30,844 nt of DNA from the IMG/VR virus record IMGVR_UViG_3300022752_000039; one strand, written 5' to 3'. Position numbers and translations under genes: made by a program. Below the pieces are notes generated by a model that searched no databases, was not told where the DNA came from, and was given only the letters and a program-made list of their open reading frames with translations. This stretch comes from an uncultured virus (IMG/VR IMGVR_UViG_3300022752_000039) (Duplodnaviria > Heunggongvirae > Uroviricota > Caudoviricetes). The number at the start of each line of letters is the position of its first letter. Position 1 is the first letter of the stretch. This document shows, piece after piece, positions 3 to 30,809 of this stretch.

Positions 3-191
3 AATGATGGTGCTGGACAGAAGGCATCAGAAGAGATGCGTGGTCATGCTCGTAAGTATGGAATTGAACTTTCTTACTTTAACTACACAGGCATTGATGT
101 AAAAGATGTAGGTGACATGATTGAGAGCGACATACATAAGAGCATCGAGTCAGCACGAGACATGATCTACGGTAAAGCGGCATACCTATGA
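3..191 (+). CDS. DNA primase, C-terminal end of Toprim domain (partial, runs off the window)
   Basis: Manual translation from position 3: NDGAGQKASEEMR...KDVGDM...YL*. This matches the Toprim (D)NDxAG...KD pattern and lies upstream of the helicase. Confidence 0.75.
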   Translation, partial: NDGAGQKASEEMRGHARKYGIELSYFNYTGIDVKDVGDMIESDIHKSIESARDMIYGKAAYL

Positions 192-361
192 TGGACTTAA
201 GAGATAAAGATCGCCCCCTACATGTTTGTATCTGCGGATCAAGACTATGGAAAGTACAAGCAATGTTTGAGGACGGAGAGATTTCTCTGTACATGCTAGA
301 TATGGAGTGCGCCCTATGTGGAACTCTAGCAACTGCGCCAACTGCAATAGATAACCAATGA
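188..361 (+). CDS. small Zn-binding hypothetical protein (57 aa)
   Basis: Manual translation MMDLRDKDRPLHVCICGSRLW...MECALCGTLATAPTAIDNQ (CxCG and CxxCG). ATGA overlaps with both neighbours. Absent from the ORF track. Confidence 0.75.
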   Translation: MMDLRDKDRPLHVCICGSRLWKVQAMFEDGEISLYMLDMECALCGTLATAPTAIDNQ

Positions 362-1914
362 CATTTACAGGAACTCTCAAGCCCTACCAGGTAGAGGCTG
401 TAGATCGCATGGTAGAGCGCAAGAAGATGCTTGTAGCCTACGAGATGGGTCTAGGTAAGACCTGCATGACTATCGCATCGGTTGAGAAGTTAAAAGACAA
501 CGGTTTAATTACAAGGCCAGTATTAGTCATCGCCCTCTCAAGTCTGAAGTATCAGTGGCAGAAAGAGATACAGAAGTTCTCTGACTCCACCACCACGGTG
601 ATCGATGGCTCTAAGACAGTACGTACAAAACGTTGGGAAGAACGTACAGATTACGTCATCTGCAACTACGAGACTGTTGTAGGAGATTGGGATCTAATCA
701 AGGATCAGGAGTGGGGAGCCATTGTCTGTGATGAAGCCACAGCAATCAAAGGATTTAAATCAAAAAGATCAAAGGCTGTCAAGAAACTATCTGCAAGTGT
801 ACCAATTAGGTTTGCATTAACAGGAACACCTATTGAGAATGGCAGACCAGAAGAGGTCTACAGCATAATGCAGTTTGTAGACTCAACTCTCCTAGGTCGA
901 TTTGATTTGTTTGATCAGACGTTTATTGTTCGCAATCACTTCGGTGGAGTACAACGCTATCGCAACCTACAGTTGTTTCACGATAAGATGAAGAGTTCCT
1001 CCGTTCGAAAGGTTCAGACAGATGCAGACGTTGCTCCATATCTTCCAGACACTATTCATCGTGACCCTATGTTTATTGCCTTTGATAAGAAGAGTTCGTC
1101 GCTTTATAACTTCATTGCAGATGAATTAAGCAACGAACTCTTTGAAGCACAGCAGTTGCTAGGTGCTAACTTCTCTCTGATGGCCCACTATGGACATGAC
1201 AGCAAACCTGGAAGTCCTGTAGATCAGTTGCGTGGATCAATCATGTCTAAGATTACTGCTCTTCGTATGCTGTGTGATGATCCAAACCTTTTGCATAAGA
1301 GCGCAGATAAATTTGATGAGCATCTTGGAGAAGGAAGTGCGTATGTAAACAGTTTAAAGACAAGAGACTTACTAGATGGGGTAACAAAGACCCCAAAGTT
1401 AGATGCACTAAAGACTTATGTAAACGATCATCTAGACACCGATCCAGAGGCAAAGGTAGTTATCTTTACTTCTTGGGTAGGAATGTTAGAAAGTATTCAA
1501 GAAGCAGTGGGTGGCACTCTGTATACGGGTTACATGAACGCTAAGGAGAAGGAAGCAAGCAAGACCAAGTTCCTAACAGACCCAGAGTGCCGTGTGTTTA
1601 TATCTTCCGATGCTGGTGGCTATGGTGTAGATTTGCCCATCGCTAACCTACTGGTCAATTACGATCTGCCATGGAGTGCAGGACTTGCCGTCCAACGCAA
1701 TGGTCGAATCAAGAGAGCCTCTAGTCGTTGGCCTAGTATTACTATTCAAGACATGTTGATTGCCGATTCGATAGAAGAACGACAACATGATATGCTCCAG
1801 CAGAAGAACGCAGTAGCAGATGCGGTTATCGATGGTCAGGGCATTAACGCAAAAGGCGGCGTCGACCTCACCGTTGGAAGTTTGATAGGGTTCCTACAGA
1901 AAGCAAGACCATAG
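358..1914 (+). CDS. SNF2/SF2 helicase
   Basis: Motif I YEMGLGKT, motif II CDEA, motif III ALTGTPIEN, motif V AGGYGVDL, motif VI QRNGRIKR. Confidence 0.93.
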   Translation: MTFTGTLKPYQVEAVDRMVERKKMLVAYEMGLGKTCMTIASVEKLKDNGLITRPVLVIALSSLKYQWQKEIQKFSDSTTTVIDGSKTVRTKRWEERTDYVICNYETVVGDWDLIKDQEWGAIVCDEATAIKGFKSKRSKAVKKLSASVPIRFALTGTPIENGRPEEVYSIMQFVDSTLLGRFDLFDQTFIVRNHFGGVQRYRNLQLFHDKMKSSSVRKVQTDADVAPYLPDTIHRDPMFIAFDKKSSSLYNFIADELSNELFEAQQLLGANFSLMAHYGHDSKPGSPVDQLRGSIMSKITALRMLCDDPNLLHKSADKFDEHLGEGSAYVNSLKTRDLLDGVTKTPKLDALKTYVNDHLDTDPEAKVVIFTSWVGMLESIQEAVGGTLYTGYMNAKEKEASKTKFLTDPECRVFISSDAGGYGVDLPIANLLVNYDLPWSAGLAVQRNGRIKRASSRWPSITIQDMLIADSIEERQHDMLQQKNAVADAVIDGQGINAKGGVDLTVGSLIGFLQKARP

Positions 1915-21888: not shown

Positions 21889-22470
21889 TTACTCTGTTAT
21901 TCCTAGTGCTTTCGCTTTCGCTTTTGCTAGGGCTTTTGCATGTGCTTCAGGGAACTGTGCTAACCACTTTTTTACTACAGGATTGTGGACACCTTTCCAT
22001 GATCTCCAGTCTTTGCCTTTTGCGCTCATGAAGTAAGCGATCTTGGCGTTCACCACAGGATTCAACAGTTGAGCGTTGTACTCTAAATTGAACTTTTCCC
22101 TGCGATCTTGTCCCAATGAGTCAACCATGTTGACTTGGAACAACCCGAATGAGTTATCCCCTGTCTTGCGATTGCCGTTGTGGGAGAGAGGGTTTCCATG
22201 TGACTCTTTCATAGCGATTGCCCACGCATAGCGTAAGGCTTGTCCTTTGAAGCCAACTGCGCTAAGCAGATCGACTAACTGTGTCTGAGTTAGTTTGTCT
22301 GCATTCTCGTACTTGGCTAGGGCTCGCTCTTGGTATTGCTTCTGCATGATCTGTGCTTCGGCTTGCGTAGGGCTAAAGGCTGGTGGCAATACCACTAGCC
22401 CACTACCAACGAACATCGCCGTAAATAGCGATCCGAATACGATCTTGCCTCTTCTTGTTAGATTCATCAT
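21889..22470 (-). CDS. membrane-anchored or secreted lysozyme-like lytic transglycosylase (SLT-type)
   Basis: N-terminal hydrophobic segment; AIAMKES (catalytic Glu), SFGLFQVN, LLNPVVNAKIAY, DWRSW. Confidence 0.85.
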   Translation of the reverse strand: MMNLTRRGKIVFGSLFTAMFVGSGLVVLPPAFSPTQAEAQIMQKQYQERALAKYENADKLTQTQLVDLLSAVGFKGQALRYAWAIAMKESHGNPLSHNGNRKTGDNSFGLFQVNMVDSLGQDRREKFNLEYNAQLLNPVVNAKIAYFMSAKGKDWRSWKGVHNPVVKKWLAQFPEAHAKALAKAKAKALGITE

Positions 22471-23732
22471 CACTCCAAAAAGTCATTGACACTTTCTGAT
22501 GCCTTTGACTGGTTGTGACGAAGGCGATGTAGGTATCGCTCTGTCGTCTTTATCGACTGATGCCCTAAGCGTTCCTTGACCTCATGCACATCTACTCCGC
22601 TTTTTAGAAGTTGAGTAGCGTTAGCGTGCCTTAGATCATGGGTTCTAGGACTCCAACCGATGCCTGACTTGGCTATTGCCTTGTTCCATGTAGTTCTCCA
22701 TACATCTCGTGGTAGGTGACTCGTATGGTCGATGAACCTCTGTTGCTTTTGGTATGGCTTTGTCTTTTGCCTGTGCTTTCGCACCGACTCTCTACAAGCC
22801 TCGCATCGGCAACGCCCATGTGTATAGGCGTACAGAGTTCCATGCTGGAACAGTTTTCCGTCTTTGGCGAATGGTCGCTTAGACATTTCTCCACGAGAAG
22901 CCTCTAGTTTACCTGTTGTTAAGATGATCGTTCTTGGAAACAACAGGTCATCTTTTGATAGGGCTTTTGCTATGACATAACCCTGAATCTCTTGTAGTAG
23001 GGCTTTGCTTAACATAAGGCTTCGCTTATGACCCGACTTTGTGGCTTCTACGACTAGAAACCTGCTGGTATGGCTTGACCCTAGATCGCTGACTCGCCTT
23101 TGGACATAGACTTCCCCTGTCCTCAGGTTGATGTCCTTGACCCTGATCTCGGTTGCTTCCCCGAATCGGCAACCTGATGCGACTAAGAATCGGGCGAATA
23201 ACTGCGCCCCTTCGGTCGGTAGATGCTGAATAATCGCTTTAAACTCTTCGGGTTCTACAACATTTGAGATGTCCGAATACTTCGCCTTAATACGAATCCC
23301 ATGAGTAGGGTTCTGAGTTAATTCTCCTGTATCGACTAACTGGGAGAAGGCAGACCCTAGTGATGCCTTGATCTGATTGAGGGTGGCTGAACCGACTCCT
23401 TCTGATCTCAGGGCTTGAAGTAACTTTTGAATGGTACGGGTATCGATCGAAGTTACTTTGCGATCTCCAAGAGTTGGAATCACATAGCGGTCAATGACTG
23501 ATCGATAGCCCTTGCGAGTGATCGGCATGAGATCGGCGGTGGGAAGCCATGAATCGATGTAGGTCGATAGGGTAAATACAGCCCTAGAAGGCTCGCTGCC
23601 ACCCGATGCCTCTGCTTTTGAGGCGTGGTACATGGCATCGATCTCCGAGCCCCATGTACCTGCTGAGAGGCGTTTACCGCCCTTTCGGTAATAGCCTGTA
23701 AACCTATCCCCACGCTTTACGACATAAGCCAT
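22470..23732 (-). CDS. int: tyrosine recombinase/integrase
   Basis: SGCRFGEA (Arg), TKSG (Lys), HDLRH, LGHQSIKTTERY (His, Tyr); N-terminal arm-binding and core-binding regions; AAGGGG RBS. Confidence 0.95.
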   Translation of the reverse strand: MAYVVKRGDRFTGYYRKGGKRLSAGTWGSEIDAMYHASKAEASGGSEPSRAVFTLSTYIDSWLPTADLMPITRKGYRSVIDRYVIPTLGDRKVTSIDTRTIQKLLQALRSEGVGSATLNQIKASLGSAFSQLVDTGELTQNPTHGIRIKAKYSDISNVVEPEEFKAIIQHLPTEGAQLFARFLVASGCRFGEATEIRVKDINLRTGEVYVQRRVSDLGSSHTSRFLVVEATKSGHKRSLMLSKALLQEIQGYVIAKALSKDDLLFPRTIILTTGKLEASRGEMSKRPFAKDGKLFQHGTLYAYTHGRCRCEACRESVRKHRQKTKPYQKQQRFIDHTSHLPRDVWRTTWNKAIAKSGIGWSPRTHDLRHANATQLLKSGVDVHEVKERLGHQSIKTTERYLHRLRHNQSKASESVNDFLE

Positions 23733-25083: not shown

Positions 25084-25414
25084 CGTTACTCCGATCTCTG
25101 TATTGGTCAGGGTTTTCGATCACATACTTCATAAACGAATCCATGACACTCGTTAAGTCCTCAGGGTCTAACTCTGCATACTTCAAGAGAATCTCGATCA
25201 TGTGCAGGAATCCCCAAATCAACATCTCAGGTTCGATCTCTTGATCTTCCATGATTGAGTTCAGGTGTTCATTGGCTAGGTACTCCTTGATCTCCTGAGG
25301 CAGACTGTCTTTGCGATCAGAATCTACTTTGAATCCGCGAACGATCTTTAGAAACTCGTTAGCGATCGTGATCGACTTAATCAGATCAGTTTGGTGTGAT
25401 GATAGTTCACTCAT
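25073..25414 (-). CDS. hypothetical acidic protein
   Basis: AAAGGAG RBS; 113 aa. Confidence 0.75.
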   Translation of the reverse strand: MSELSSHQTDLIKSITIANEFLKIVRGFKVDSDRKDSLPQEIKEYLANEHLNSIMEDQEIEPEMLIWGFLHMIEILLKYAELDPEDLTSVMDSFMKYVIENPDQYRDRSNDED

Positions 25415-25499
25415 TTATTTCTCCTTTGCATTCGTGGACAGTTTCGTACTCAACCCATTCCAAGCAGTCATTACATTTAGTTTGTGGAATTGATGTCAT
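25407..25499 (-). CDS. micro Zn-finger protein (30 aa)
   Basis: Manual translation MTSIPQTKCNDCLEWVEYETVHECKGEINE (CxxC...HxC); AAGGAG RBS. Confidence 0.6.
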   Translation of the reverse strand: MTSIPQTKCNDCLEWVEYETVHECKGEINE

Positions 25500-25510
25500 T
25501 TAGTTTCTCC

Positions 25511-25684
25511 TTAATTGTAAGTGTGTCCGACTTTGAATCGGTTCATGTATTTACTTTCTATTCTTCTAATCAGTACACGATTTGTGTTAAATCGATCAGC
25601 AACGCTCTGCAACGATTCGCCATTGAATCGTGCAACAAGGATTGCATTTACTTCTTCTAGTGTGAATGGGTGTGGTGTATCCAT
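25511..25684 (-). CDS. small HTH protein, sigma-70 region-4-like (57 aa)
   Basis: Manual translation MDTPHPFTLEEVNAILVARFNGESLQSVADRFNTNRVLIRRIESKY...; GAGAGGA RBS. Confidence 0.68.
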   Translation of the reverse strand: MDTPHPFTLEEVNAILVARFNGESLQSVADRFNTNRVLIRRIESKYMNRFKVGHTYN

Positions 25685-25714
25685 GTTGTAATCCTCTCTA
25701 GGTTAATTAAATAG

Positions 25715-25972
25715 TTGATAGAGATCGTCAAGAAGTAGAACGATGTTGTGCGTTGGTCTGAAATCGATCAACGATCTTGCAAGATTTTCATAACACCTTT
25801 TCAGTCTGCCGTAGTCTGCTAGGTGTTGACGATCTCTATCAATAGTGAAATCGAGTAGGGGCAGGTACGACTACGGCAATCATAGAAGCCGATCATGATC
25901 GCCCTTAGCAGGTAAGGAGATAGGGAAATGAATTAACCCTGTCGTTTAACCCTGCGTTGACCCCTACTCGAT
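25715..25972. ncRNA. candidate structured non-coding RNA (two long stems plus loop-loop pairing)
   Basis: Perfect inverted repeats: 25715-25731/25826-25842 (17 bp), 25850-25861/25961-25972 (12 bp), and crossing pair 25807-25816/25869-25878 (10 bp). It fills an ORF-free gap. Confidence 0.62.
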
Positions 25973-25976
25973 AAAG

Positions 25977-26141
25977 TTACTGTGTTGGATTATGAATGCA
26001 GTTAAAGCAGAACCACAGTATCTTTTGACTACCTAGTTCTTCGAAGTATTTACCTGATGAAGTAAGTTCGTTATTCCCGCAATCATCACAATTAGTTAGT
26101 TCGTGGGCTTCTACCCTACGAACGATCTGTGCGTATCCCAT
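25977..26141 (-). CDS. small C4 Zn-ribbon protein (54 aa)
   Basis: Manual translation MGYAQIVRR...CDDCG...WFCFNC; AGGAG RBS. Confidence 0.72.
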   Translation of the reverse strand: MGYAQIVRRVEAHELTNCDDCGNNELTSSGKYFEELGSQKILWFCFNCIHNPTQ

Positions 26142-26151
26142 TGGTTATCTC

Positions 26152-26301
26152 CTATCTTCCCTGCGAACAAGGTTCACAGATTAAGTATCCGTCTTTTGGA
26201 TACATCTCATTGACATCGTGTTGATCGCCACACTCAAAACAATCTCGAATGTGACGATACTTTTGATCTAGCAGTTTTGCTTGTCTAAGCGTTATTGGCA
26301 T
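26152..26301 (-). CDS. small C4 Zn-ribbon protein (49 aa)
   Basis: Manual translation MPITLRQAK...CFECG...ICEPC; AAGGAG RBS. Confidence 0.7.
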   Translation of the reverse strand: MPITLRQAKLLDQKYRHIRDCFECGDQHDVNEMYPKDGYLICEPCSQGR

Positions 26302-28812: not shown

Positions 28813-30759
28813 TTAGTTGCTTACGAGACGGCGAGAGATCGCATACTTCACGATTGATTTCGCCATGTAAACAAGATCGAATGGATTACGAATTACAGAA
28901 GCGATCTCGCAATAGTGAGACTTCTGTGCATTTAGTTCTACAGGTTCGGTACTTTCAGGAATGTACGCGAATGCAGTAAGCACACCAGCACGAGCCATGC
29001 GCTTGATTGTTTCGTGATTAGCATCTTGATTGCCCGACCATTCTCCGTCAGTAATTGCGAAGAAGATACGAACAGGCTTCTCAGTTTCAGCAAGCAATTT
29101 AGTTGCGTACTGAATTGCTTGATCTGCTGATGTACCGCCACCAGTACCAGCATCACGAATTGTGTTACCAACACGATCAGTTGCACGATACAGGGTGTTA
29201 GCACGATCATTAAAAGTGATAACAGTTGTATTTGCATTAACACGATCAAGTGCCTTCTTAATTGCGTACATGGCTTTGTATGCACTAGAGGCTTTGTGTC
29301 CTGACATTGAACCTGAGTTGTCTAACAAGATCACGCATTCGATCTCAGTCGCATCTTCACGACCTTCATTCCATTGATCGAATACAGTATCAAGATCATC
29401 ACCACGCAAGTAGCGATGTGCAGACAAGCGACCTTGTGATTCGTATCTATCCCATGCAGGGTCGAACGATGATCTCAGTCGCTCTAACTCACGACCGAAT
29501 GACAACGATGCTTGAAATGTATTTGCATCAGGAACAAGATCATGAAAGCGATCTAACTCAGGCTCTTTTGAATTGTTGGTAGTAAGAGAAGGTAAACCAC
29601 CAATCTGTCGCAAGATGTCATTGATTTCGGTTTCATTAGAATCAAGAATGTTTTCTAATAAATCACTAATCAATGTATCGATTAACTCGCCAGCAGAAGA
29701 ACCAGCAGAATCAGAAGGTTGATGTGAATCAGAATCTTGATCTGAATCTTGATCTGAATCTGCATCATCAAAACCAAAATCAAAATCAATGTCGTTGATG
29801 TCAACATCGATAACAGGTTTTGATTTCAGTTGTTCAGCCAGTTGTGCATCATCTTCTTTGTCGAATTGTTGTGAGCGATCACGATCTTTTTCTTGCTTCT
29901 TTGGTGGTACAGGTCGTGAATTAGCAGACGATTCCAAGCCCTCAGAAGGTCGCTTGCCATGACCGAATGGGTCATTGATACGAACGACTACATCGCCCTC
30001 TTCACCAGCCTCAGCAGGTCGCACAGACCCACCTTCGCCATTACCTGAGCCGTTGCCATTACCTTTTGGAAGTAACTCATTAAATCGCGCAATAAGTTCC
30101 TTTCCTTTTTCAGTATCAGCAGGGAAGAGAAGAGTTCGGTACTCATCGACTACTGAACAGATTTCATTGATCTGATCTTGTTCAGGGTAGGCGTTACGAG
30201 ACTGGGCTCTTAGATCAACAGGCAGGTATCTACGACCACGCAATAACGGATAAGAGTTAGTGAATGCCTCTTTGTTATCAACGAAGTGAATCAAGATCGT
30301 GGCAGTAAACCAATCGATTGTTGACGGATACTTTGATGTAAAGAGAGTTTCGATTCTCTGATCTTCAAGTGCGTTGTATGCCATGAAGTAATTGTTGTCC
30401 TTCACATAGTCAAAGAGTTCTGAACCTTCACGAGATGTGTAGAGAATGTGACTGATCTCGTGAAGATCAAGACCCTTGATACCAGCGATTGATTTAGCAT
30501 CATTGAGATCACCAATGACACGAGAGTTGAAAGTAACAGTTGATGCACCTGACCAAGCAGGTGCTTCCATAGGCGAGTTCTCAACAGTCACAACCACTTT
30601 GCGGAAAGTGAATGCAGAATTAACACGACCGAAGAATTGTGTGAATCGCTCTAGTCGTTGTTTCTTCTCTTCTGCCTTGATTGCTTGTGATCGTAGTGAC
30701 TCACGAGTTTCACCAAGTATGTCGAGTTCCCACTCTTCGATTGCTTCGTCATAGTTCAT
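28813..30759 (-). CDS. HExxH metallopeptidase-like plus vWA domain protein (CobT-like; typical partner of a MoxR AAA+ ATPase)
   Basis: LHEISH...NALEDQRIE; acidic linker; MIDAS DNSGS, GGT, ITDG. GGGGAG RBS before ATG 30759. Confidence 0.85.
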   Translation of the reverse strand: MNYDEAIEEWELDILGETRESLRSQAIKAEEKKQRLERFTQFFGRVNSAFTFRKVVVTVENSPMEAPAWSGASTVTFNSRVIGDLNDAKSIAGIKGLDLHEISHILYTSREGSELFDYVKDNNYFMAYNALEDQRIETLFTSKYPSTIDWFTATILIHFVDNKEAFTNSYPLLRGRRYLPVDLRAQSRNAYPEQDQINEICSVVDEYRTLLFPADTEKGKELIARFNELLPKGNGNGSGNGEGGSVRPAEAGEEGDVVVRINDPFGHGKRPSEGLESSANSRPVPPKKQEKDRDRSQQFDKEDDAQLAEQLKSKPVIDVDINDIDFDFGFDDADSDQDSDQDSDSHQPSDSAGSSAGELIDTLISDLLENILDSNETEINDILRQIGGLPSLTTNNSKEPELDRFHDLVPDANTFQASLSFGRELERLRSSFDPAWDRYESQGRLSAHRYLRGDDLDTVFDQWNEGREDATEIECVILLDNSGSMSGHKASSAYKAMYAIKKALDRVNANTTVITFNDRANTLYRATDRVGNTIRDAGTGGGTSADQAIQYATKLLAETEKPVRIFFAITDGEWSGNQDANHETIKRMARAGVLTAFAYIPESTEPVELNAQKSHYCEIASVIRNPFDLVYMAKSIVKYAISRRLVSN

Positions 30760-30809
30760 TGTTACTCCCCATTGTTTGCATGACGGACATTTACCACAGG
30801 CACACATTG

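Follow-up and report, generated by a model that had tools for sequence, protein, structure and literature searches.

A predicted three-way-junction RNA motif and an optional hairpin cassette share an intergenic gap of an uncultured Caudoviricetes virus

Main

The 30,844-nucleotide (nt) stretch of uncultured virus DNA in IMG/VR record IMGVR_UViG_3300022752_000039 (Duplodnaviria; Heunggongvirae; Uroviricota; Caudoviricetes), analysed here at its full length and called the window, carries a 292-nt gap (25685–25976) between two minus-strand genes. Two folded elements lie side by side in this gap: domain B, a putative member of a widespread RNA family, and domain A, a hairpin cassette that some relatives have and others lack. 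An earlier reading of the same DNA from its letters (the original prediction) had described the gap as a candidate single structured non-coding RNA (ncRNA) in which twin long stems are joined by a 10-base-pair (bp) kissing or pseudoknot pairing. Comparing the locus with its relatives, we consider it probable that the gap is made of two independent modules, a conserved RNA (B) and an optional cassette (A) that resembles a miniature inverted-repeat transposable element (MITE). The gap and its flanks hold the following features:

25977–26141, minus strand: gene for a 54-amino-acid (aa) zinc-ribbon-like protein (CxxC...CxxC), from the list of open reading frames (ORFs); its TAA stop (25977–25979) ends 4 nt before helix P1 of domain B
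25850–25972, minus strand: domain B, a predicted conserved three-way-junction RNA motif (P1, P2 with hairpin P2a, P3a, internal loop, P3b), matched by covariance model R1 at 157 bits, E 1e-40
25715–25842, minus strand: domain A, an optional 128-nt hairpin cassette, recognized by its presence or absence among close relatives
25511–25698, minus strand: gene for a 57-aa helix-turn-helix (HTH) protein (25511–25684) with its Shine–Dalgarno sequence GAGAGGA (25692–25698), from the ORF list and Pfam

The three inverted repeats on which the original prediction was built are all present and perfect: 17 bp (25715–25731 with 25826–25842), 12 bp (25850–25861 with 25961–25972) and 10 bp (25807–25816 with 25869–25878). 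The gap was also rightly described as ORF-free and strongly folding. It contains no ORF of at least 40 aa from ATG, GTG or TTG starts, its longest stop-to-stop frame is 55 aa, and the folds of 25700–25985 reach −102.2 kcal/mol as plus-strand RNA (z −6.49) and −90.3 kcal/mol as minus-strand RNA (z −6.14), with none of 200 dinucleotide shuffles as good on either strand. A scan of 25685–25976 found no promoter- or terminator-like site, in keeping with the earlier view that the gap is more than a terminator. We rejected an intrinsic terminator as a candidate: no site with a GC-rich hairpin followed by a U run lies between 25685 and 25976.

Domain B and its relatives

Domain B is present in all ten of the first relatives, which were gathered through the 54-aa protein and then aligned. 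A 17-mer from its 5′ conserved block matched 30 IMG/VR stretches, 16 of them homologues by inspection; with a 15-mer of the 3′ block came two others (L074 and L141), both confirmed by covariance model. That model, R1, was built from the RNAalifold fold of 13 sequences aligned with MAFFT, with helix P3b added. A two-block pattern search returned 67 metagenome stretches, of which R1 confirms 62; with all 17 window and viral sources this gives 79 copies, 61 of them distinct, ranging in GC content from 0.41 to 0.74 and coming from freshwater, marine and other metagenomes.

Rfam 15 (4227 models) gave no match in the window at gathering thresholds, and the sole matches in 18 diverse B loci were tRNAs in contig L211; the original prediction, too, had recognized no known family here. 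With the limit relaxed to E 10, nothing overlapped B within 25400–26300 of the window, and two other stretches yielded chance-level matches only (E 1.8 or worse). We found no description of either element in the literature on phage MITEs and actinophage structured RNAs, which is not proof of their being unpublished. Judged from these sequence comparisons, domain B is a member of a widespread, predicted three-way-junction RNA family that is absent from Rfam 15. The earlier claim of a structured RNA of no known family is borne out for B, by covariation among 61 distinct homologues, and fails for A and B taken as one two-domain RNA. The comparative fold of B comprises:

25960–25972 (5′ strand) with 25850–25862, minus strand: helix P1, 13 pairs including an invariant U·G; 98.6% paired, 11/13 pairs changed on both sides
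25951–25955 with 25908–25912, minus strand: helix P2; 91.8% paired, 6/6 pairs changed on both sides
25937–25940 with 25922–25925, minus strand: hairpin P2a inside P2, from the comparative fold
25898–25905 with 25863–25871, minus strand: P3a of arm P3, with a bulged A and conserved G·U pairs
25892–25897 (CAUGAU) opposite 25872–25873 (UA), minus strand: internal loop of arm P3
25888–25891 with 25874–25877, minus strand: P3b of arm P3, in which pairs swap between CG and GC

P1 and P2 are joined by the junction CAAC, and P2 encloses, besides hairpin P2a, a CUCCUUA stretch (25913–25919); P2a itself is missing from many distant homologues. The base of P3 is nearly invariant, AGGGCGRU pairing with AGYCGUACCU through conserved G·U pairs around a bulged A, and so is its asymmetric internal loop, CAUGAY opposite RA or UA. 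The tips of the arms vary in length and sequence. From this pattern of conservation, the invariant loop and junction look like a putative binding or active site.

Across the 13 MAFFT-aligned sequences, RNAalifold draws 29 pairs, nine of which have changed on both sides, and brings together the two most conserved blocks of B; the comparative fold pairs AGGGCGAU with GUCGUACCU, plus CGGC with GCCG. A purine–pyrimidine pair in P3a is AU in eight and GC in five of these sequences, without exception, and among the 61 distinct sequences it is GC in 47, AU in 12 and GU in two. The third pair of P3b swaps between G–C and C–G in the early alignment. Over the 61 sequences, 97.7% of cells are paired, as against 77.6% in shuffles and 33–42% with slid partners; 20 of the 29 pairs have changed on both sides; and the covariation score of 0.412 (control, 0.132) is reached by 0/500 shuffles. 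By mutual information, nine of the ten top column pairs are pairs of the model, and no extra paired columns or pseudoknot pairs emerged in B. The minimum-energy fold of the single sequence draws P3 differently, and the comparative fold is the better supported of the two. The inner hairpins that the original prediction named can indeed be drawn, although the covariation-supported fold of B differs from them in part. Of the helices that it had put forward for a covariation check, P1 of B (11/13 pairs) and the closing stem of A (4/17) carry double changes; the crossing helix between A and B is uncompensated.

On the minus strand, 208 cells of the fold are G–U and 8 are A·C, so the RNA sense of B is that of the genes; about 170 of the 208 stem from three almost invariant G·U pairs. 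The original prediction had left the strand open while seeing G–U pairs that favoured the plus strand, a preference that is reversed for B. B also contains a perfect 12-nt palindrome, CGATCATGATCG (25887–25898), which is broken in 5/13 relatives while the long-range pairing of the RNA is retained.

Genes around domain B

In 21/60 loci, exactly 4 nt separate P1 from the end of the stop codon of the ORF before it, and in 47/60 that end lies within −6 to +13 nt of P1; the proteins encoded just before B are unrelated in different clades. Homologues of the 54-aa CxxC protein stand upstream of B in 18/61 loci. Downstream, 20/61 loci have a gene of the HTH family, whether A is there or not, and in 18/61 a ribonucleotide reductase gene lies in convergent orientation; several B loci have no downstream ORF within 330 nt. 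With so variable a downstream gene, B is not a leader for the HTH gene, and the earlier suggestion of a switch for that gene has to be given up: what lies downstream differs among clades and, in the 18 ribonucleotide reductase loci, is convergent.

In bacterial species genomes the exact pattern matched four and the model confirmed two, an Actinomycetota metagenome-assembled genome (MAG; G003) and Rhodococcus rhodnii, the latter with a single copy in its chromosome. Among 151 genomes of the class of G003, searched with stricter filters, the one match was the starting genome itself. G003 carries seven dispersed copies of B (L253–L256), and phage records carry one each. Ahead of at least five of the G003 copies stand a strong ribosome-binding site and a 24-codon CxxC mini-ORF that is conserved and whose stop codon falls a few nucleotides before B, and a GC-rich hairpin follows B in all seven aligned copies; these copies resemble small self-contained transcription units. 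BLAST against cultured phages returned nothing for the window region and nothing for the GC-rich B copy of L182; for a B copy of G003 it returned only a 26-nt match (E 0.9) in a Pseudomonas phage. On L211, a soil-type contig, an array of four tRNA genes (22–439, minus strand) has B about 570 nt upstream on the same strand.

Domain A

Between B and domain A there are 7 nt, and between domain A and the ribosome-binding site of the HTH gene, which follows it, 16 nt. The terminal inverted repeats of A, perfect over the 17 bp given above, sit within a 24-nt arm pair that is 88% complementary, and short direct repeats abut it:

25843–25845, minus strand: direct repeat CTA abutting the upstream end of A, from the flank table
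25712–25714, minus strand: second copy of the direct repeat CTA, abutting the downstream end of A

The flanks match on the two sides of A in 9/10 loci, being CTA in six, CTAA in two and TTT in one, and differ in L191 (CCA and CTA); the direct repeat could be 3–5 bp long, as its length varies with the point chosen for the end of the repeat arm. Among the first relatives, A is present in 6/10 and precisely absent from 4/10, and in these four the ribosome-binding site of the HTH gene comes directly after B. L030 has a B identical to that of the window and no A, L029 and L210 match the predicted empty site, and the same HTH protein occurs with and without A. Altogether A accompanies 10 of the 61 distinct copies of B and is missing from 51, an outcome with which the twin architecture of the original prediction does not survive. 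The ten loci with both domains provide nine distinct A sequences; the closing stem is 100% paired in all nine, with 4/17 pairs changed on both sides, and in some copies the tips of the inner hairpins have been replaced wholesale, several interior blocks being invariant. This anatomy of A, and its presence/absence polymorphism, are observed in the present analysis.

Two smaller features of A may be recorded. It holds a perfect 12-nt palindrome, ATCTTGCAAGAT (25775–25786), whose central 10 nt are invariant in all nine copies. It also holds a 7-codon frame (25783–25760, minus strand) reading MKILQDR and then a stop, kept in 6/9 aligned A sequences: L042 has one synonymous change, the frame persists with altered starts in the two most diverged copies, and in L044 it runs on past the stop. 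The purine-rich stretch upstream of this frame is too near the AUG for a usual ribosome-binding site.

A has the three marks by which it was compared with MITEs, namely terminal inverted repeats on a short non-coding element, a target-site duplication, and filled and empty sites. A match to a MITE was among the outcomes that the original prediction had named as speaking against it, and for A this came about in part, with inverted repeats, direct repeats and empty sites found and dispersed copies not. We lean slightly towards an origin of A by MITE-like insertion. The clean boundaries at the inverted repeats, the intact empty site in L029 and L210, the HTH protein that is the same on either kind of locus, and direct repeats that differ between lineages (CTA, CTAA, TTT) yet match on both sides of each copy all speak against the alternative that A is not mobile at all. 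On that alternative, A would be an old accessory RNA hairpin of the operon, acting in cis on the HTH cistron and repeatedly lost or swapped by recombination at module borders. It would fit the single locus, the interior blocks that stay invariant even in very diverged copies such as L173 and L174, the closing stem maintained by double changes, and the mosaic copies, L191 for one mixing two hairpin types. We hold this non-mobile history to be somewhat unlikely.

RNase III sites and transcribed MITEs provide long perfect duplexes. As RNA, A may possibly act through its long perfect duplex as a hairpin for processing (an RNase III site, say) or for stability, placed between B and the HTH cistron; we rate this role as conceivable, with the balance tilted against it.

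The complement between A and B

The 10-bp complement on which the original prediction had hung its kissing or pseudoknot helix has these two sides:

25807–25816, no strand assigned: A side of the complement, in the loop of inner hairpin Aa, from the repeat search and the comparison of loci with both A and B
25869–25878, no strand assigned: B side of the complement, overlapping the 3′ strand of P3b, the loop UA and the first three bases of the 3′ strand of P3a

Within the window sequence alone the complement is unusual, a perfect complement of at least 10 bp between A and B arising in only 2/200 shuffles of A. It is 10 bp long only in the window and in the identical IMG/VR record G001, 8 bp in L048 and L235, and 7 bp in L020. 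The longest complement in L023 is 7 bp, that in each of L042, L044, L191, L173 and L174 is 6 bp, and in all six it falls elsewhere and is no better than in shuffles; in the last five the loop on the A side has been replaced by other sequences. Among the ten loci with both domains there is no compensatory change in the 10-bp pairing, every change being one-sided. On this comparison the complement is best read as a probable lineage-specific coincidence, by chance or as a very recent feature, and not as a structural element.

If A and B were nevertheless two domains of one ncRNA, locked by a functional kissing or pseudoknot helix of 10 bp, one would understand why so rare a complement occurs here (2/200 shuffles) and why A adjoins B in 10/10 of its copies. 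Yet B stands without A in 51/61 distinct loci, the pairing drops to 8 and 7 bp and then to background uncompensated, and the B strand of the proposed helix is already engaged in the covariation-supported P3a and P3b. We find the one-RNA model scarcely credible, and the crossing helix of the original prediction, which decays among relatives and overlaps conserved helices of B, falls with it.

Weighing the two modules

A number of points count against our reading of the gap as an RNA module and an insertable cassette. For B, the invariance of P3a among the metagenome sequences was partly forced by the search pattern, and the alignment of 61 sequences (A2) was fitted to the model; the independent support is smaller and consists of the 13 MAFFT-aligned sequences and the copies found by the model alone. 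The spacing from stop codon to P1 is partly inherited, about 15 of the 21 exact cases coming from the window's own clade, so that the independent cases are few. Transcription has weak support from contigs of two metatranscriptome libraries, which span A and B of relatives with 85–99% likeness; such contigs give no strand, ends or level, and carry-over of DNA is possible. One joint, which skips 25876–25959, has only 20 nt on one side.

For A, the difficulty lies in its confinement. It was found at one locus only, in searches that did not reach metagenome and genome collections, three IMG/VR scans returning the same 8 contigs; model R2 detected no second copy in 270 kb of loci and five phage records, four of which have one copy and the fifth none; and no autonomous partner element with the ends of A was found. 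Invariant interior blocks are unusual for a decaying MITE. The mismatches in the stem of A (G–U versus A·C) point to both strands. Because A occupies a single locus with neither dispersed copies nor an autonomous partner, repeated loss of an old accessory domain, or shuffling of modules by recombination, fits as well as insertion does.

What domain B may do

In the working model that goes with two modules, the gap would be transcribed with the leftward (minus-strand) early operon of a freshwater actinobacterial phage, and B would act as an autonomous, stable RNA domain in a 3′ untranslated region (UTR) or intercistronic position by way of its conserved loop and junction. Its most likely role may be to bind a protein or to survive mRNA decay as a small RNA, a suggestion that we make tentatively and at rather less than an even chance. 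A ribosome terminating upstream would melt P1, and in this way the folding of B could be gated by translation of the preceding ORF. Read in connection with termination, B would use the arriving ribosome to gate its fold; we regard it as improbable that B is a new functional RNA class working together with translation termination in this way.

Alternatively, B may stand in the way of mRNA decay or be self-cleaving, and the outcome would be a stable small RNA carried in the early operons of actinobacterial phages. Such an RNA, cleaving itself or halting exonucleases and so processing or protecting the polycistronic transcript directly behind the stop codon, would suit the fixed place of B just after stop codons, its presence between genes that are unrelated to one another, its several copies within a single genome, and the conservation of its junction and internal-loop bases beside variable arm tips. 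On the other side, no Rfam ribozyme family (hammerhead, twister, pistol, hatchet or others) matches at E up to 10, and the junction strands of B do not seem to fit the hammerhead core. We judge this explanation quite improbable.

Two loci raise the thought that B might be a Y-RNA-like partner of the Ro60 (Rsr) protein. Y RNAs, as set out in part of PMC4201824, are 80–130 nt long, have a terminal stem and lie near Ro60 genes; and in L246 (7–918) and L196 (584–1150) an orthologue of Ro60, matching TROVE and vWA_Ro60 (E 7.6e-58), is encoded on the strand of B, a few hundred bases upstream. These are two related loci of 61 only. No TROVE domain occurs in eight B-holding viral records, nor in the seven-copy MAG G003 or in G002, and five further B-holding records show a weak Ro-like profile match over the vWA region only. 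The 664-aa VWA protein of the window has an HExxH motif and no TROVE match; a Ro-encoding mycobacteriophage has a YrlA match and lacks B; and B does not match RF02553. A partnership with Ro60 is extremely unlikely on this evidence. L246 and L196 are GC-rich phage contigs, and the nearest annotated relatives of their Ro60 are the Ro-like genes of Bxz1-type mycobacteriophages, which are without B.

That palindromes and GATC sites make the region work as DNA, in an origin, operator or cruciform, is very unlikely. Each domain does contain one of two conserved 12-nt palindromes, and six GATC sites fall within 258 nt. However, the pairs of B covary with a strong single-strand G–U bias; the palindrome of B is the one that 5/13 sequences break while keeping the long-range pair; GATC is common throughout at 7.5 per kb, with 5% of equal-sized windows reaching six; and no promoter-like site was found.

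As a further candidate, mimicry of the 3′ end of 16S rRNA (helix 45, anti-Shine–Dalgarno) by B was rejected, the likeness to the 16S sequence of G003 being no better than that of shuffles. The best local alignments are 9–14 nt long and fall in a different place for each of four copies tested; two 11-nt exact matches were reached by 18 and 23 of 300 shuffles, and the other two copies lie at the shuffle mean.

The phage and its minus-strand arm

By Pfam and PHROG, the genes of the minus-strand arm include a tyrosine integrase, a WhiB-type regulator, an excisionase-like HTH protein, an HNH endonuclease and the 664-aa VWA protein, and the arm is the early or lysogeny arm of a temperate actinobacterial phage. 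DNA runs holding the stretch come from freshwater or lake metagenomes, and the nearest IMG/VR record, G001, is 100% identical to the window over the 901 bases compared. Neither tRNA nor tmRNA was detected. Of the genes beside the gap, that for the 54-aa CxxC protein has no Pfam or PHROG match, a protein atlas look-up returning hypothetical proteins only, and the 57-aa HTH protein matches Pfam Sigma70_r4 at E 0.0016, below the curated cut-off.

The 664-aa protein (28813–30807, minus strand), encoded about 3 kb upstream of B and kept in 5/5 related phage records, combines an N-terminal CxxC pair, the HExxH motif, a long acidic low-complexity middle and a C-terminal VWA domain; it is not a Ro60. 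In the tyrosine integrase (22470–23732, minus strand), the Pfam catalytic domain is matched in two stretches, and residues 293–339 give short HNH-endonuclease-like PHROG matches, as if a small segment had been inserted in the catalytic domain. The Rfam model freshwater-2 has a weak match, probably due to chance, at 25497–25594 (minus strand; 23.8 bits, with a threshold of 49.9, and E 0.32), which takes in the HTH gene at its 3′ end.

Comparison with known systems

Weinberg et al. are said to have assembled, in 2010 and 2017, sets of orphan structured RNA motifs from phage and metagenome intergenic regions by comparative genomics. Like such motifs, B is compact and covariation-supported, with invariant junction and loop bases and variable arm tips, and is known from sequence alone, mostly in uncultured phages; it differs in matching none of the 4227 models of Rfam 15 and in sitting a few bases after the upstream stop codon. 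If B holds up, it would add a well-supported family to the short list of RNAs from phages of actinobacteria.

Correia elements of Neisseria and ERIC are bacterial MITEs that fold as RNA hairpins when transcribed. A resembles them as a non-coding element of about 130 nt with inverted and short direct repeats and with filled and empty sites, placed in a transcription unit just upstream of a gene. Unlike them, it occurs at one locus without dispersed copies, no autonomous element was found for it, and even its diverged copies share conserved interior blocks. As a hairpin cassette, A is unusually clean, coming and going at one site in otherwise near-identical phages, and this makes it useful for learning how phage inserts arise. 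Beside it, the complement with B illustrates how chance can produce a long perfect complement in a single sequence, even close to genuine structure.

Phage T7 has RNase III processing hairpins between its early genes. In its long predicted duplex in an intercistronic gap of a phage early operon A is like these hairpins, and A, with perhaps P1 of B, may work likewise; A is optional, and the T7 sites are not mobile cassettes.

With Y RNAs and YrlA (RF02553; part of PMC4201824), B shares a similar size, a closing stem formed by its 5′ and 3′ ends and, in two loci, a nearby Ro60 gene. It is unlike them in having no RF02553 match and no tRNA-like arms, and there is no Ro60 in the relatives of the window or in the seven-copy MAG.

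Exonuclease-resistant RNAs of viral 3′ UTRs have a three-way-junction architecture. The likeness of B to these viral RNAs is one of analogy only, with no likeness of sequence. What B has in common with them, and with small RNAs derived from 3′ UTRs, is a predicted stable fold that starts just after a stop codon, a placement that offers a concrete handle on the coupling of translation and RNA folding.

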